Below are positions 25,259-51,323 of a stretch of 64,000 bases of DNA, piece after piece. The notes under the pieces were generated by a model that was not told the origin of the DNA, did not search any database, and worked only from the letters and a program-made list of their open reading frames with translations. Source of the DNA: Escherichia coli (GTDB taxonomy: Bacteria; Pseudomonadota; Gammaproteobacteria; Enterobacterales; Enterobacteriaceae); the NCBI RefSeq assembly GCF_009931435.1, contig NZ_CP043414.1; one strand, written 5' to 3'. Within the stretch, counting starts at the first letter, position 1, and every line of letters begins with the position of its first letter. The translations under genes were made by a program, and so were the position numbers.

Positions 25259-26234
25259 TATAGCCCTTTCAATATGTGAAGGGGCAAGGAAGCATGGTGT
25301 CAATATAGATATTTATTATCTTGATGAAATTGTAGAGTTGGATATAGACGAGTCAGAACTGAATATAAATAGGCTAAATGATAGAACCATTTTAAACAGT
25401 TATGATATTGTTCACTCTCATGGCTTAAGACCCGATGTTATTAATTGTAAGACCAGCAAAAATGTCATTAATGTAAGTACGCTTCATAGTTTTATTTTAG
25501 ATGATCTTAAGAATAAATATGGAATAAAAGGATATCTGATCGCTTTTGCTTGGCTTAAATTATTAAAGCGATTTGATTCATGTATTGCAATTAGTGAGGC
25601 GACTAAACGGTTTTATGTTAAACATGGTCTTAAATGCCACCATATATATAATGGAATCGACTTTCCTGACATCGAATTATATCAAGATAACTCAAGGCTA
25701 AATAACGGCAAAATAAATATAGTATCGATCGCGCATCTGGAAAAAATAAAAGGCTTAGAGCAACTCCTATATCTAGCCGCGGAGCGAGAAGAGTTCCATG
25801 TTCATATAATTGGTGAAGGAACTTACCGTGGGAAATTAACAAATATTATTGATAAGTTTGATTTATCTCAGCGTGTAACTTTGCATGGATATATATCAAA
25901 TGCGAGTTCTATGTTGGGGAAATTTGATGTTTATGTGCAACCATCTAAAAGTGAGGGGTTTGGCATTGCAGTCATTGAAGCTCTTGTAAATAAAATCCCA
26001 ACAGTTTGCTCAGACATTGAAGTGTTCAGAGAGTTATTTGGCTCAGGAGAAGTTGAATTTTTCAAGTTAGACGATATTAATTCACTTTACGATGCAATTT
26101 CAAGTGCATTAACCAAGACAGATATGTCTCGAGATGCAAGTGCCACAGCGATAAGCCAAAAATTTTCTTCAGAAGTGATGTCATTGAACTATTTAAGTTG
26201 GTATAAAAAATTATATGAAGAAAGAAATTTATAA
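25209..26234 (+). CDS. O-antigen glycosyltransferase, GT4 family
   Basis: 341-aa ORF; GT4 E-x7-E region (SKSEGFGIAVIEALVNKIPTVCSDIEVFRELF). Confidence 0.75.
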   Translation: MKIAMIIPSLKNTAPNNIALSICEGARKHGVNIDIYYLDEIVELDIDESELNINRLNDRTILNSYDIVHSHGLRPDVINCKTSKNVINVSTLHSFILDDLKNKYGIKGYLIAFAWLKLLKRFDSCIAISEATKRFYVKHGLKCHHIYNGIDFPDIELYQDNSRLNNGKINIVSIAHLEKIKGLEQLLYLAAEREEFHVHIIGEGTYRGKLTNIIDKFDLSQRVTLHGYISNASSMLGKFDVYVQPSKSEGFGIAVIEALVNKIPTVCSDIEVFRELFGSGEVEFFKLDDINSLYDAISSALTKTDMSRDASATAISQKFSSEVMSLNYLSWYKKLYEERNL

Positions 26235-27393
26235 ATATGGCACAATAATATTATGCTATGGAATTAACTTTATACTACCTATTCTTTTCTTTAAAGAAAT
26301 AAGTTTAATATTATCTCCAATAGTATTATCATCATTTTTCTTTGTTTTGGCATTGCTAATGTATTGTCAATTCATTGTTGAATACGGGTTGCAAATATCA
26401 TTATTAAGAAAGTTAAATGAAAATAAGAGTGATTTAAGTCGGCTTTTATCTACTATTCTTGGACTAAAAGTAATACTATTCGTCCTATGCGCAGTATTCA
26501 TTTATTGTATTTTGCTATATAATAATGAAGTTATATTTTTTATACTTGTTTTCATTCTGCTAGGAAACGTATTCTCATGCCAGTTCCTCTATCAAGTAGT
26601 TGATCAGCTCCATTTTTTTTATGTATTAAATTCGCTTGTTAAGCTAATTTTCATACCCCTCATTTTTATCAATGATAATTATATCTATCTGATGATATGT
26701 TATAGTTGTTTCAATATCCTACCTAACTTAGCTGCACTTGCTTATTTTTTATATAAGAATAAAGTTAAGGTTGTAAAAGTTCCTGCTTGTGAAATTTATA
26801 ATTTATCTAAGGAATGTTTTAGCTATTTTATCTCGAATATTTCGATAACATTATACACTAATTTTTATCAGATCTTATTAGGCATTATATCGCCCGCTTA
26901 TCTGGCCGCGTATGCATTAAGTGACAAAATTATTAGGGGGATCGTGTCAGGGAATTATGTGTTTATACAGATAGTACAAGTACAATACTTAAATGATGAA
27001 TCAAAGTTCATCAATGGTACATGGAAAACGATTGTTTCATTATTATTACTGGGGGGGATGGAGTTTTTATTTATTTTCTTTGGAGCGGATTTTTTCTCTC
27101 GTTATTTATTCCCTACAATATCTTTACTGCCAATTTTTCTAAAACTAATGTCATTGCTAATTGTTGTTATCTTGTTGAGTAACTTTTTTGCAATGGTTTA
27201 TCTTCCGTGTTCAGGCAATACTTTATTCCTCTCACGTGTTCTGATTTTTGTTTCTATTGTGTCCGTAGTAGTTGCCCCGATACTAATATGGCTCTATGCA
27301 GGTTATGGTGCAGTCATTTCCGCTATATTTTCAGAGTTATTAGTTCTGATTTTATGCTATGGTTTATATTTGAAATTAAAACACAAACTCTAA
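26215..27393 (+). CDS. wzx: putative O-antigen flippase
   Basis: 392-aa polytopic membrane ORF, about 12 predicted TM segments, AT-rich. Confidence 0.65.
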   Translation: MKKEIYKYGTIILCYGINFILPILFFKEISLILSPIVLSSFFFVLALLMYCQFIVEYGLQISLLRKLNENKSDLSRLLSTILGLKVILFVLCAVFIYCILLYNNEVIFFILVFILLGNVFSCQFLYQVVDQLHFFYVLNSLVKLIFIPLIFINDNYIYLMICYSCFNILPNLAALAYFLYKNKVKVVKVPACEIYNLSKECFSYFISNISITLYTNFYQILLGIISPAYLAAYALSDKIIRGIVSGNYVFIQIVQVQYLNDESKFINGTWKTIVSLLLLGGMEFLFIFFGADFFSRYLFPTISLLPIFLKLMSLLIVVILLSNFFAMVYLPCSGNTLFLSRVLIFVSIVSVVVAPILIWLYAGYGAVISAIFSELLVLILCYGLYLKLKHKL

Positions 27394-27415: not shown

Positions 27416-27856
27416 ATGAATTTATTGATTGTTTTTTGCTTTTATATTTCGGTTCTGCGTAGTAATAAAATAAGTGTATTTAAATTAATCACTATCACAA
27501 CTGTCTTGATTGTATATGTATTCTGGCTAATAGCCGACAGTTTTACTGGCGTTGGGATAAATGATTCAGTTTATTTCCATATGTTAATGCCGCATGAGGG
27601 GGCATCGGTTGAAAATTTAACATATTATGGATTTCTGATTGTAAGCCTTGTTATTTCAATTTTCTTGATTGCTTATGTTTCTTGGAAAAAGAAGCATAAT
27701 AGAGGATTAAGTAAAAATTACTCTTTTTACGTACTCTTCGCTATTGTATTAGTTACTCCATTTATGCGTAATTTCCTGGGGTCAATTAACAATTTAATTT
27801 CCGAACAGTTTTCTACTGAAGATATAAGTAAAGAGTATGTAATCAATAGTAGGTGA
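27416..27856 (+). pseudogene. 3'-truncated membrane-protein gene, last gene of the O-antigen cluster, interrupted by IS1
   Basis: 146-codon ORF with N-terminal TM helices; its stop codon TGA (27854-27856) lies inside the IS1 left terminal repeat. Confidence 0.6.
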
Positions 27857-27906: not shown

Positions 27907-28182
27907 GTGGCTTCTGTTTCTATCAGCTGTCCCTCCTGTTCAGCTACTGACGGGGTGGTGCGTAACGGCAAAAGCACCGCCGGACATCAGCGCTATCTCT
28001 GCTCTCACTGCCGTAAAACATGGCAACTGCAGTTCACTTACACCGCTTCTCAACCCGGTACGCACCAGAAAATCATTGATATGGCCATGAATGGCGTTGG
28101 ATGCCGGGCAACCGCCCGCATTATGGGCGTTGGCCTCAACACGATTTTCCGCCATTTAAAAAACTCAGGCCGCAGTCGGTAA
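27907..28182 (+). CDS. insA: IS1 InsA
   Basis: 91-aa [26 protein letters not shown]..., zinc-finger/HTH InsA. Confidence 0.9.
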
Positions 28183-28604
28183 CCTCGCGCATACAGCCGG
28201 GCAGTGACGTCATCGTCTGCGCGGAAATGGACGAACAGTGGGGCTATGTCGGGGCTAAATCGCGCCAGCGCTGGCTGTTTTACGCGTATGACAGGCTCCG
28301 GAAGACGGTTGTTGCGCACGTATTCGGTGAACGCACTATGGCGACGCTGGGGCGTCTTATGAGCCTGCTGTCACCCTTTGACGTGGTGATATGGATGACG
28401 GATGGCTGGCCGCTGTATGAATCCCGCCTGAAGGGAAAGCTGCACGTAATCAGCAAGCGATATACGCAGCGAATTGAGCGGCATAACCTGAATCTGAGGC
28501 AGCACCTGGCACGGCTGGGACGGAAGTCGCTGTCGTTCTCAAAATCGGTGGAGCTGCATGACAAAGTCATCGGGCATTATCTGAACATAAAACACTATCA
28601 ATAA
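28101..28604 (+). CDS. insB: IS1 InsB (expressed as InsAB' by -1 frameshift)
   Basis: 167-aa ORF overlapping insA in the -1 frame, ending ...HYLNIKHYQ. Confidence 0.9.
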
Positions 28605-28990: not shown

Positions 28991-30397
28991 ATGTCAAAGC
29001 AACAGATCGGCGTAGTCGGTATGGCAGTGATGGGGCGCAACCTTGCGCTCAACATCGAAAGCCGTGGTTATACCGTCTCTATTTTCAACCGTTCCCGTGA
29101 AAAGACGGAAGAAGTGATTGCCGAAAATCCAGGCAAGAAACTGGTTCCTTACTATACGGTGAAAGAGTTTGTTGAATCTCTGGAAACGCCTCGTCGCATC
29201 CTGTTAATGGTGAAAGCAGGTGCTGGCACGGATGCTGCTATTGATTCCATCAAGCCGTACCTCGATAAAGGTGACATCATCATTGATGGTGGTAATACAT
29301 TCTTCCAGGACACCATTCGCCGTAACCGTGAGCTTTCTGCCGAAGGCTTTAACTTCATCGGTACCGGTGTTTCCGGTGGTGAAGAGGGCGCGCTGAAAGG
29401 GCCTTCCATCATGCCTGGTGGGCAGAAAGAAGCCTATGAACTGGTTGCGCCGATCCTGACCAAAATCGCAGCCGTTGCTGAAGATGGCGAACCGTGCGTT
29501 ACCTATATTGGTACCGATGGCGCAGGTCACTATGTGAAGATGGTTCACAACGGTATTGAATATGGCGATATGCAGCTGATTGCTGAAGCCTATTCTCTGC
29601 TTAAAGGTGGCCTGAACCTCACTAACGAAGAACTGGCGCAGACCTTTACCGAGTGGAATAACGGTGAACTGAGTAGCTACCTGATCGACATCACCAAAGA
29701 CATCTTCACCAAAAAAGATGAAGACGGTAACTACCTGGTTGATGTGATTCTGGATGAAGCAGCAAACAAAGGTACCGGTAAATGGACCAGCCAGAGCGCG
29801 CTGGATCTCGGCGAACCGCTGTCGCTGATTACCGAGTCTGTGTTTGCACGTTATATCTCTTCTCTGAAAGAGCAGCGTGTTGCCGCATCTAAAGTTCTCT
29901 CTGGCCCGCAAGCGCAGCCAGCTGGCGACAAAGGTGAGTTCATCGAAAAAGTTCGTCGTGCTCTGTATCTGGGCAAAATCGTTTCTTACGCTCAGGGCTT
30001 CTCTCAGCTGCGTGCTGCGTCTGAAGAGTACAACTGGGATCTGAACTACGGCGAAATCGCGAAAATTTTCCGTGCTGGCTGCATCATCCGTGCGCAGTTC
30101 CTGCAGAAAATCACCGATGCTTATGCCGAAAATCCGCAGATCGCTAACCTGCTGCTGGCTCCGTACTTCAAGCAAATTGCCGATGACTACCAGCAGGCGC
30201 TGCGTGATGTCGTTGCTTATGCAGTACAGAACGGTATCCCGGTTCCGACCTTCGCCGCTGCGGTTGCCTATTACGATAGCTACCGTGCCGCTGTTCTGCC
30301 TGCGAACCTGATCCAGGCACAGCGTGACTATTTCGGTGCACATACTTATAAGCGCATTGATAAAGAAGGTGTGTTCCATACTGAATGGCTGGATTAA
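28991..30397 (+). CDS. gnd: 6-phosphogluconate dehydrogenase, decarboxylating
   Basis: 468-aa [30 protein letters not shown]...; recognised as Gnd. Confidence 0.97.
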
Positions 30398-30636: not shown

Positions 30637-31812
<1,176 letters not shown>

Positions 31813-31955
31813 CATCCTGTTATCAGGGCGATTTTCGCCCTGATTCTCTCATGTTCCCTTTGTAATAATTCATTGTTTTTATCATTTATCCTATAGCATT
31901 CATGGCGATTATCGCTAAACTATGGCGACTTAAAATTATTTCGTCCGTTAGGGTA

Positions 31956-32936
31956 ATGATGAGAGTAGAAAATAATAATGTTTCTGGGCAAAACCATGAC
32001 CCGGAACAGATTGATTTGATTGATTTACTGGTGCAGTTGTGGCGTGGCAAGATGACAATTATCATCTCTGTCATTGTTGCTATTGCCCTGGCTATAGGGT
32101 ATCTGGCCGTTGCCAAAGAAAAGTGGACTTCCACAGCTATCGTTACTCAACCTGATGTGGGACAAATCGCTGGTTATAACAATGCCATAAATGTGATTTA
32201 TGGTTCGGCAGCGCCGAAAGTGTCTGAGATCCAGTCGATGTTAATTGGTCGTTTCAGCACGACATTTTCTGCATTAGCAGAAACGCTGGATAATCAGGAA
32301 GAACCTGAAAAACTGACCATTGAGCCTACCGTTAAAAATCAGTCATTACCTTTAGCGGTTTCTTATGTGGGTGAAACACCTGAAGGTGCGCAGAAACAGC
32401 TGGCGCAGTATATCCAGCAAGTTGACGACCAGGTAAATGAAGAACTGGAACAAGACCTGAAAGACAACATCGCGCTGCGTATGAAAAACTTGCAGGATTC
32501 TCTGAAGACGCAGGAAGTGGTCGCTCAAGAACAGAAAGATCTGCGTATCCGTCAGATTCAGGAAGCGTTGCAGTATGCGAATCAGGCGCAGGTGACAAAG
32601 CCGCAGATTCAACAGACACAGGACGTAACCCAGGATACTATGTTCCTTTTGGGGAGCGAAGCGCTGGAGTCGATGATTAAGCACGAAGCGACCCGTCCGT
32701 TGGTGTTCTCATCAAACTACTATCAGACTCGTCAAAACCTGCTGGATATCGACAATCTTGACGTTGATAAACTTGATATTCATGCTTACCGCTATGTAAT
32801 GAAACCGACGTTACCTATTCGTCGCGATAGCCCGAAGAAAGCAATTACCTTGATTCTGGCTGTGCTGCTGGGCGGTATGGTGGGCGCGGGGATTGTGTTG
32901 GGGCGTAACGCACTGCGTAATTACAACGCGAAGTAA
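31956..32936 (+). CDS. wzzB: O-antigen chain-length determinant (polysaccharide co-polymerase)
   Basis: ORF 31902..32936; likely start at the MMRVENNN methionines (31956/31959); N- and C-terminal TM segments flanking a coiled-coil-rich periplasmic domain. Confidence 0.9.
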   Translation: MMRVENNNVSGQNHDPEQIDLIDLLVQLWRGKMTIIISVIVAIALAIGYLAVAKEKWTSTAIVTQPDVGQIAGYNNAINVIYGSAAPKVSEIQSMLIGRFSTTFSALAETLDNQEEPEKLTIEPTVKNQSLPLAVSYVGETPEGAQKQLAQYIQQVDDQVNEELEQDLKDNIALRMKNLQDSLKTQEVVAQEQKDLRIRQIQEALQYANQAQVTKPQIQQTQDVTQDTMFLLGSEALESMIKHEATRPLVFSSNYYQTRQNLLDIDNLDVDKLDIHAYRYVMKPTLPIRRDSPKKAITLILAVLLGGMVGAGIVLGRNALRNYNAK

Positions 32937-33643: not shown

Positions 33644-39160
<5,517 letters not shown>

Positions 39161-39165
39161 AGCGA

Positions 39166-40065
39166 TCACTCCATCATCTTCTCAATCGGCAGGACCAGGA
39201 TTGAACTGGCACCCAGCGCTTTCAGTTTTTCCATCGTTTCCCAGAACAGGGTTTCGCTACTCACCATGTGCATCGCTACGCGCTGTTGATCACCCGCCAG
39301 CGGTAGAATAGTTGGGCGTTCGGCACCTGGCAGCAGGGCGATGACTTCATCCAGGCGTTCGGTCGGTGCGTGCATCATGATGTATTTTGATTCGCGCGCC
39401 TGGATAACACCCTGAATACGGGTCAGCAGTTTGTCGATCAGTTGCTGTTTGGATTCTTCCATTTCGCCATCGCGCTGGATCAGGCAGGCTTTCGAGCGGT
39501 AGATAACTTCGACTTCGCGCAGGCCGTTAGCTTCCAGCGTGGCACCGGTGGAAACCAGATCGCAAATCGCATCCGCCAGTCCGGCACGCGGCGCAACTTC
39601 GACAGAGCCGTTCAGTAAGCAGGATTTAAAAGAGATACCTTTCTGGTCGAGATAACGCTTGAGCAGGTGAGGATAAGAGGTGGCGATACGTTTACCATTT
39701 AAGGAGAGCGGACCGTCCCAGGCTTCATCAACCGGCGTTGCCAGCGAAAGGCGGCAGCCGCCGAAATCCAGACGACGCAAGGTAAAGTAGCGCGGATCTT
39801 CACCCTGGGCGCGGCGGTTAAGCAGCTCTTCTTCCAGCACGTTTTCGCCGATAATCCCAAGGTCTACCACGCCGTCCATTACCAGACCGGGAATGTCATC
39901 GTCACGCACGCGCAGAATATCAATCGGCATGTTTTCTGCCATCGCGATCAGGCGCTGGGTGTGAAGATTGATTTTAATGCCACAGCGCGCCAGTAATTCG
40001 CGTGAGTCATCACTTAAACGGCCGGATTTCTGCATAGCTATGCGTAAACGAGTGTTGTCTGTCAT
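39166..40065 (-). CDS. hisG: ATP phosphoribosyltransferase
   Basis: ORF 39166..40104; start [18 protein letters not shown] at 40065 gives 299 aa. Confidence 0.95.
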
Positions 40066-48876: not shown

Positions 48877-48993
48877 CCTTTCTTTTGCAGCAGACTGGCA
48901 GGAGTGCGAGTCTGCTCGCATAATCAACACTCATTTCTTGTGGTTTTAATATCGCAATTATACTGTATATAAAAACAGTGTTAATGGGACGTC

Positions 48994-49467
48994 ATGAACT
49001 ACGAGATTAAGCAGGAAGATAAACGTACCGTTGCAGGTTTCCATCTCGTTGGCCCGTGGGAACAGACGGTAAAGAAAGGCTTTGAGCAGTTGATGATGTG
49101 GGTAGATAGCAAAAATATTGTGCCGAAGGAGTGGGTTGCTGTCTTTTACGACAATCCAGATGAAACACCCGCCGAAAAATTACGCTGCGACATCGTCGTG
49201 ACGGTGCCGAATAACTTTACGCTCCCCGAAAACAGTGAGGGCGTCATTCTGACAGAAATTTCAGGTGGTCAGTATGCGGTTGCGGTGGCTCGTGTAGTCG
49301 GTGATGATTTTGCTAAACCCTGGTATCAGTTCTTTAATAGCCTCTTGCAGGACAGTGCTTATGAAATGTTACCAAAGCCCTGCTTCGAGGTTTATTTGAA
49401 CAATGGCGCGGAAGATGGGTACTGGGATATCGAAATGTATGTTGCGGTGCAGCCAAAACATCACTAA
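48994..49467 (+). CDS. sbmC: DNA gyrase inhibitor SbmC (GyrI)
   Basis: 157-aa ORF; synteny. Confidence 0.9.
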
Positions 49468-49664
49468 TTCATCTCAGGGCGGTGTGTTAACGCGATGACC
49501 ACTCTTTTTTTGAAAGCGAAAAGAGTAAGATGCGCCTTTCAATTTTTTCGCTCCTGCCGGGAAATTACACTGTTCCCGGTTTGTCCGTCGGATAATTCAG
49601 AGGCGGGCCTTCTGGCCGACAGATGAGTTATGAGCGCTTTTAATCTTCATTACGGAGTTTCTGC

Positions 49665-50722
49665 GTGCGTGCCGATAAGTCATTAAGCCCGTTTGAAATC
49701 CGGGTATACCGCCATTACCGCATTGTGCATGGTACTCGGGTCGCGCTGGCATTCCTGCTCACTTTTCTCATTATCCGCCTGTTTACTATCCCGGAAAGCA
49801 CCTGGCCGCTGGTCACCATGGTGGTGATTATGGGGCCAATCTCGTTCTGGGGTAACGTTGTCCCTCGCGCCTTCGAACGTATTGGCGGTACGGTGTTGGG
49901 TTCGATTTTAGGTCTTATCGCTCTGCAACTGGAGTTAATTTCGTTACCGCTGATGTTAGTCTGGTGCGCGGCGGCTATGTTTCTTTGCGGTTGGCTGGCG
50001 CTGGGCAAGAAACCGTATCAAGGATTATTGATTGGGGTGACGCTGGCAATTGTTGTGGGTTCCCCGACAGGTGAAATTGATACGGCGTTATGGCGAAGCG
50101 GCGATGTGATCCTCGGCTCTTTACTGGCAATGTTGTTTACCGGTATCTGGCCACAACGGGCGTTCATCCACTGGCGCATTCAACTGGCGAAAAGTCTGAC
50201 CGAGTATAATCGGGTTTATCAATCTGCATTCTCACCGAACTTACTCGAACGCCCACGTCTGGAAAGCCATCTACAAAAACTCCTGACCGATGCCGTGAAA
50301 ATGCGTGGGCTGATTGCGCCCGCCAGCAAAGAAACTCGTATTCCAAAATCGATATATGAAGGTATCCAGACCATTAACCGCAATCTGGTTTGTATGCTGG
50401 AGTTGCAAATCAATGCATACTGGGCCACGCGCCCCAGCCATTTCGTGTTATTGAACGCGCAAAACTTCGTGATACCCAGCACATGATGCAGCAAATACTG
50501 CTGAGCCTTGTTCATGCGCTGTACGAAGGTAATCCGCAGCCGGTTTTTGCCAATACGGAAAAATTGAACGATGCTGTGGAAGAGCTGCGTCAGTTGCTGA
50601 ATAACCACCATGACCTGAAGGTTGTGGAAACACCAATCTATGGTTATGTGTGGCTGAACATGGAAACGGCACATCAGCTTGAGTTGCTATCGAGTCTGAT
50701 TTGCCGGGCCTTGCGCAAATAA
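49665..50722 (+). pseudogene. yeeA: yeeA (FUSC-family membrane protein), apparently frameshifted
   Basis: Two overlapping ORFs in different frames (49665..50486 and 50390..50722) together span 1058 nt, one base short of an intact 352-aa-plus-stop reading frame. Confidence 0.6.
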
Positions 50723-50893
50723 TTCCTGAACTTCAGAATCATCTTGCTGCTGCTTCGATTCAGCAAGGATAAAGGGTATGATAGTGAAAAGGGATAAAAG
50801 CATTGTCATCTGCGGCAGCTATGAGTAATGTTGGCCCTAACGAATAGCGGTTGCTTAAACGAATCCGACTCTCACATTATCAGGGGTATAAAA

Positions 50894-51223
50894 ATGGAAA
50901 CTACCAAGCCTTCATTCCAGGACGTACTGGAATTTGTTCGTCTGTTCCGTCGTAAGAACAAACTGCAACGTGAAATTCAGGACGTTGAGAAAAAGATCCG
51001 TGACAACCAGAAGCGCGTCCTGTTGCTGGACAACCTGAGCGATTACATCAAGCCCGGGATGAGCGTTGAAGCAATCCAGGGCATCATCGCCAGCATGAAA
51101 GGTGACTATGAAGATCGCGTTGACGATTACATCATCAAAAATGCCGAGCTCTCCAAAGAACGCCGCGATATCTCCAAAAAGCTGAAAGCTATGGGCGAAA
51201 TGAAAAACGGCGAAGCGAAGTAA
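50894..51223 (+). CDS. yeeX: UPF0265/DUF496 protein YeeX
   Basis: ORF 50828..51223; start [14 protein letters not shown] at 50894 gives 109 aa. Confidence 0.85.
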
Positions 51224-51323
51224 TTCCTGTTTTATTCAATGAGGGTTGCCCGGCAACCCTCATTGCTCATTGATTCTTATCTGTGTATCACCGTCATCAT
51301 TCTCATCTGAGAACCTATCGAAA

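Follow-up and report, generated by a model that had tools for sequence, protein, structure and literature searches.

Does the yeeA locus of this Escherichia coli genome hold two small genes or one gene broken by a single base and, if it is broken, does the break lie in the strain or in its assembly? In the window, as we call the whole 64,000-nt stretch of contig NZ_CP043414.1 that was analysed, the list of open reading frames (ORFs) gives two plus-strand ORFs at this place: a 5′ ORF of 273 aa with a GTG start (49665..50486) and a 3′ ORF of 110 aa with a TTG start (50390..50722), which lies in another frame and overlaps the first. Jointly they span 1,058 nt, whereas an intact yeeA has 352 codons and occupies 1,059 nt including its stop. 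The sequence-only reading had taken these coordinates and this sum, both of which proved correct, to mean that a single-base frameshift disrupts yeeA, with the switch of frame somewhere within about 50390–50486. When window positions 49665–50722 were aligned with the intact yeeA of E. coli strain 504239 (WP_001200892.1; 352 aa, 1,059 nt), the sole difference in 1,059 columns was a 1-base gap in a run of A residues, which reads GCGCAAAAACTT in the strain 504239 reference and GCGCAAAACTT in the window. The five-A run (A5; yeeA nt 797–801, codons Gln266–Lys267) of the references examined is thus a four-A run (A4) at 50461..50464 on the plus strand, inside the predicted interval, and the lost A is not assignable to one position within the run. 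This one-gap alignment confirms the frameshift; no statistical signal is involved, the lesion being read directly off the two sequences, and chance plays no part in it.

The consequences for the reading frame can be followed base by base. The 5′ fragment (49665..50486, plus strand) is identical to the intact allele up to nt 796 and encodes native codons 1–266, seven out-of-frame codons (NFVIPST) and a premature TGA; the shifted reading runs CAA (Gln266) AAC TTC GTG ATA CCC AGC ACA TGA, with the stop at 50484–50486. The predicted product has 273 aa, 266 of them native, out of 352 (76%). The 3′ remainder (50462..50722, plus strand) still specifies native Lys267–Lys352 and is 100% identical to the intact allele, but its frame is shifted by −1 from that of the 5′ part, and the native TAA at 50720–50722 is reached in that frame from 50462. 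The 110-aa ORF begins with a non-native leader of 24 codons (50390..50461, plus strand) that overlaps the 5′ fragment out of frame and occurs in no native protein. The premature TGA overlaps the ATG of native Met274 (50483–50485) in an ATGA (50483..50486, plus strand), and because of this overlap gene callers report a separate 79-aa ORF at 50483–50722; public assemblies with the A4 allele contain two neighbouring gene calls, of 273 aa and 79 aa, with a 4-nt overlap. An intact 1,059-nt yeeA occupies the same locus, between sbmC and tmaR, in strains 504239, CFSAN061769 and 401651. The length of the indel is not divisible by three, a premature stop follows and close relatives keep an intact orthologue in place; as assembled, the window yeeA is an ordinary frameshift pseudogene made by a one-base homopolymer deletion.

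We considered what the truncation would do to the protein. In RefSeq the intact gene, which encodes an inner-membrane protein, bears the label ‘yeeA: FUSC family protein’ and precedes tmaR, and the restored intact YeeA matches Pfam FUSC over residues 20–316 with 57.5 bits, above the gathering threshold. The 273-aa ORF on its own matches FUSC_2 (PF13515; E = 4.3e-14, 53.2 bits, cut-off 25.6) and FUSC (PF04632; E = 8.7e-14, 51.5 bits, cut-off 30.9), so that both the intact protein and the 5′ fragment exceed the gathering thresholds of the FUSC/aromatic acid exporter family; the 110-aa ORF alone gave no Pfam match. Unlike intact FUSC members, the window YeeA has only 266 of its 352 native residues, and the truncation falls within the stretch homologous to FUSC. 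In a crude hydropathy test (Kyte–Doolittle), all strongly hydrophobic stretches fell within residues 19–115 and no value above 0.8 occurred beyond residue 170, consistent with the FUSC layout of an N-terminal multi-spanning membrane domain followed by a soluble domain. The truncated product keeps the whole hydrophobic membrane part (about residues 19–165) and the start of the soluble C-terminal half. Because the break falls at Gln266, 86 residues of that half are lost, 50 of them inside the FUSC-homologous region. Judged from this domain layout, the truncated YeeA is most likely non-functional or badly impaired. A PDB sequence search with intact YeeA returned no meaningful match (best E = 0.89, a tektin). 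In a small sample of papers containing the term yeeA, we found no function, substrate or phenotype for the protein, and in one of them yeeA serves only as a landmark of prophage insertion.

Function could nevertheless be retained if slippage of the ribosome or of RNA polymerase restored the full-length protein, or if re-initiation at the ATGA yielded 273-aa and 79-aa pieces that reassembled. Together these two pieces lack only native residues 267–273. Ribosomes shifting by −1 at C AAA AC would again read the native Gln-Lys-Leu, the ATGA formed by the premature TGA and the Met274 ATG is an arrangement typical of translational coupling, and the 3′ part is still wholly intact. Against slippage, the site (GCG CAA AAC TTC) contains no canonical X XXY YYZ slippery heptamer. 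Appreciable transcriptional slippage needs runs of about nine or more, and A4 is far shorter, which counts against rescue by this route. The shifted arrangement was found in none of 5,333 complete genomes, as detailed below, and with such absence no recoding signal can have evolved around the site; neither the slippery sequence nor the conservation expected of programmed frameshifting is present. Re-initiation could in principle yield the 79-aa C-terminal piece, but the ATGA overlap is an accidental by-product of the new frame, inspection of the sequence upstream of the Met274 ATG revealed no Shine–Dalgarno-like sequence, and fragment complementation is not known from experiments in the FUSC family. 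We therefore regard a working yeeA, by whichever of these routes, as very improbable.

A real deletion has to be distinguished from an error in which base-calling, consensus or polishing omitted one A from a yeeA that is intact, with A5, in the strain. The sequence-only reading had offered this as its alternative, and it has points in its favour: under-calling of homopolymers is the commonest indel error, and the 3′ part of yeeA bears no secondary decay, with zero further differences. An error-prone assembly would show more than one such lesion, however, and we assessed the window against its nearest relatives. It belongs to an ETEC-like clade with strains 401651, 67-1, TW11681, 504239 and CFSAN061769 (about 100% identity over 24 kb). 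Against the closest genome, 401651, the yeeA gap was the sole indel across window 30963–64000 (33 kb), and the eight substitutions in that span all lay in mobile-element repeats (six in an IS629 remnant, two in the group II intron region). Against CFSAN061769, 35 kb aligned with 84 substitutions and exactly one gap, again that in yeeA. When 61 coding sequences (CDS) intact in 401651 were mapped to the window, only yeeA was disrupted; wcaB was incomplete merely because the window begins inside it. A single indel in 33–35 kb and a single broken gene of 61 indicate that the window assembly is clean. In addition, a five-A run is short for the residual errors of accurate platforms in general.

Two side observations emerged from these comparisons. 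At 52266–52413, within the IS629-family remnant, the window carries six substitutions relative to all close relatives and to the independently assembled contig described below (L005), and many E. coli genomes have, at other places, IS3-family copies that match the window's version at 100% identity. This match suggests gene conversion, with another IS copy as donor, or mis-assembly or mis-polishing of a repeat; the patch could mean imperfect repeat handling in the window assembly, and to that extent it speaks for an error at yeeA. Separately, CFSAN061769 has another O-antigen cluster (O5 family), and the substitutions relative to this strain are concentrated at 29000–29999 near gnd and at 36000–39200 in the his operon, in tight patches typical of recombination flanking the O-antigen locus.

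We then asked how often the A4 allele occurs in complete genomes. A 1.4-kb query around yeeA matched 5,420 of 5,426 complete RefSeq E. coli genomes, with at least 80% of the query covered in 5,196; the best matches had 99.9% identity, over 1,402 bases against 1,401 of the query. With an 80-base probe centred on the site, an A4 carrier would reach at least 99% identity. Among the 5,333 complete E. coli genomes with a probe match, the best identity was 98.8% (80/81), and the listed matches span one extra base relative to the window. Because no match reached 99%, none of these genomes carries A4. The sequence-only reading had named a similarly split reference yeeA as the finding that would overturn it; the yeeA of K-12 MG1655 is unsplit and encodes an intact FUSC family protein, and the other matching complete genomes are likewise unsplit. 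The A4 allele is thus rare, and its absence from every matching complete RefSeq genome counts on the side of an error.

Public assemblies supplied further evidence in both directions. The exact 273-aa product was present on 25 contigs, compared with at least 1,000 contigs for the intact protein of the same allele, and we describe ten places with A4 among the matches listed. In one Logan assembly (L005, run ERR13361303), and in four similar places, yeeA is identical to that of the window. The L005 contig aligned without gaps over 6.8 kb and with seven substitutions, all in the IS629-remnant and intron repeats; it and its four look-alikes were assembled separately, but possibly from the window genome's own sequencing runs. 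Another assembly (L007) carries A4 on a yeeA one substitution away from that of the window; it is free of other indels, and the IS629/intron block is missing from it. Three more (L008, L009 and L012) carry A4 on yeeA haplotypes 12–18 nt from the window. L008 and L012 have no further indel except a shared lineage-level insertion at 48987 (the L012 alignment stops short of 48987), and L009 has one extra indel besides that insertion. By contrast, five assemblies (L006, L010, L011, L013 and L014) combine A4 with 5–10 additional homopolymer deletions within 5 kb, and a further one (L029) is error-ridden, with many other homopolymer deletions. In the five noisy assemblies A4 is probably an artefact, and its appearance in error-ridden sequence indicates that the A5-to-A4 change can be one, which lends the error explanation some weight for the window too. 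Judging from the contexts in which it appears, the change has two possible origins, error and recurrent true mutation.

In the case of the window, a true deletion is favoured by the clean surroundings and by the separate clean contig: the identical allele and background recur in a run that was assembled separately, whose contig shows no further indel in 6.8 kb, and in four similar contigs. On this comparative evidence we consider the yeeA deletion likely to be a real, recent and lineage-restricted pseudogene, and the A4 allele to be probably confined to a small sub-lineage. A sequencing or assembly error, the alternative raised from the sequence alone, is disfavoured and appears unlikely, although less so than the functional rescue discussed above. 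A real deletion would most likely have arisen by strand slippage during replication, with the loss of one A:T pair from the A5 at yeeA nt 797–801; the frame would then shift after Gln266, seven wrong residues would be added before the TGA at 50484–50486, and the product, without its last 86 residues, would have lost YeeA function or retained it in badly impaired form. Such a loss would be tolerated if YeeA is dispensable, and may be neutral.

Homopolymer length in coding sequence also sets the reading frame in phase-variable contingency loci, and we asked whether the site behaves as a mutational hotspot or a switch. Intact yeeA contains four homopolymers of at least 5 nt, at nt 611, 797, 881 and 896, and as a control we looked up the exact products of ±1 slippage at each 5-nt run in the same protein background. 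Loss of one base was found on 14 contigs for the run at nt 611, on 25 for the window's site at nt 797, on 29 for nt 881 and on 9 for nt 896; gain of one base was found on 2, 5, 0 and 1 contigs, respectively. A hotspot at nt 797 was therefore rejected, because −1 products of the other runs occurred on 9–29 contigs against 25 at this site. A candidate A6 insertion at the same run (L018, with products of 269 and 79 aa) was also discarded, since alignment places its +1 at nt 711; the true A6 product was present on only the 5 contigs counted above. Unlike contingency loci, the yeeA tract is only 5 nt long (4 here), far below the lengths associated with high-frequency switching. The few −1 and +1 contigs against at least 1,000 intact ones, and the lack of A4 among the 5,333 complete genomes, do not describe a phase-variable locus.

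Breakage of yeeA is common in other lineages. An IS21-family insertion at nt 826 gives a 291-aa product (134 contigs, 298 index blocks), a frameshift near codon 182 gives a 231-aa product (315 contigs) and, in S. flexneri, IS insertions remove the first ~770–785 nt at the 5′ end and leave a 79-aa fragment (117 contigs). Several runs show a −1 in the C-run at nt 768, and other lesions on record comprise a +1 at nt 711, a −2 at nt 805–806, a 47-bp deletion, a stop at codon 262 and an IS66-family insertion (public lesion loci L017, L019, L021–L023, L025, L027, L028 and L031–L033). These disruptions in E. coli and Shigella lie at the same sbmC–yeeA–tmaR locus and likewise leave a separately called 79-aa C-terminal ORF; they differ from the A-run deletion of the window in the type of lesion (IS insertion, other frameshifts, a 47-bp deletion or a nonsense change). 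That yeeA has been broken independently, and in various ways, in many E. coli and Shigella lineages indicates that YeeA is dispensable.

Many independent lesions of different types, some of them on the large contig sets given above, might also mean that the lesion is real and adaptive, with loss of YeeA positively selected in some pathovars or lineages, so that the pattern is one of convergence and not of neutral decay. Several observations argue against this. The intact allele is overwhelmingly dominant, with at least 1,000 contigs for this single protein sequence, and the great majority of complete genomes (5,196 of 5,426) cover at least 80% of the 1.4-kb yeeA query. Loss of one base is no commoner at the window's site than at the other runs (25 contigs against 14, 29 and 9), as neutral slippage or error would give, and the lesion count, taken for yeeA alone, is uncalibrated against other non-essential genes. 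We consider an adaptive loss improbable. Similarly low is the credence that we give to the broader proposition that yeeA is a preferred target of loss, convergently and possibly adaptively, or that a two-piece YeeA derived from the ATGA still functions. A comparison of haplotypes, made to see whether the lost C-terminus is under purifying selection, gave too few differences to be informative (1–3 synonymous against 1–2 non-synonymous codons), the 5′ part being biased by the exact-protein look-up.

The favoured interpretation, a real one-base deletion in a dispensable gene, has a familiar parallel. Among the frameshift pseudogenes that homopolymer slippage has produced in E. coli, the rph-1 allele of K-12 is a one-base deletion with a documented downstream polar effect on pyrE. 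The two resemble each other in that a late single-base deletion in a non-essential gene creates a premature stop in one lineage while the neighbouring genes stay intact. They differ in that the polarity of rph-1 on pyrE is documented, whereas any such effect of the yeeA lesion would concern tmaR, 172 nt downstream. Scanning 49400–51300 for promoters and terminators was uninformative about such polarity: no stretch resembled a promoter, and the one hairpin resembling a terminator is located inside tmaR.

In practical terms, yeeA should be flagged here as a frameshifted pseudogene and not annotated as two hypothetical genes of 273 and 79–110 aa, and the A4 lesion could mark a sub-lineage of the ETEC-like clade. 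More broadly, if modestly, natural isolates have lost yeeA, the gene of a conserved membrane protein, many times over by unrelated lesions, which indicates that some niches at least can do without it. Beyond annotation the finding matters little. The locus bears no sign of a recoding or switching mechanism.

Whether yeeA is one of many decaying genes can be judged from the rest of the window. The colanic-acid cluster occupies positions 1 to ~20,600; it is followed by an O-antigen cluster, whose flippase gene (26215–27393) is intact at 392 aa as in TW11681, and by an IS1 (~27,907–28,604) between the flippase gene and gnd. The gene order then continues with gnd-ugd-wzzB, the his operon, yefM-yoeB and yeeZ-yeeY-plaP-tsuAB-sbcB-dacD-sbmC-yeeA-tmaR. 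An orphan EutP/PduV-family gene (51324–51689, minus strand) adjoins the IS629 remnant, which is part of an IS629-family element split by a group II intron (51901–55384) and common to relatives. Annotation transferred from 401651 places the IS629 5′ part at 51901–52640, the ltrA reverse transcriptase/maturase gene at ~53313–54821, the IS629 3′ remnant at ~54905–55384 and, after it, an IS110-family fragment, also common to relatives, at ~55543–55914. A CP4-44-like island with Ag43 is present as well. All of the mobile elements, including the IS1, the IS629 remnant and the group II intron, occupy the same places in relatives with an intact yeeA, so the IS content says nothing specific about the window genome. 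The sequence-only reading had combined the IS insertions with yeeA into a picture of a genome accumulating pseudogenes, but the window does not support it: one of 61 CDS is broken, the IS elements are shared and, in the comparison with 401651, no gene lesion other than the yeeA deletion is specific to the window.

Some of the relatives differ at neighbouring genes. The O-antigen flippase gene is annotated as a pseudogene in 401651, which lacks a T present at window position 27432. In CFSAN061769 (L003/L004), wzzB has an internal stop; the gene (window ~31,460–32,440) is intact in the window and in 401651. At the position of the EutP/PduV-family gene, an assembly from another E. coli background (L018) has a fuller microcompartment locus, with PduV-EutP, two BMC shell genes and an RnfC-like gene, and by this comparison the window's lineage appears to retain only a stub of that locus.
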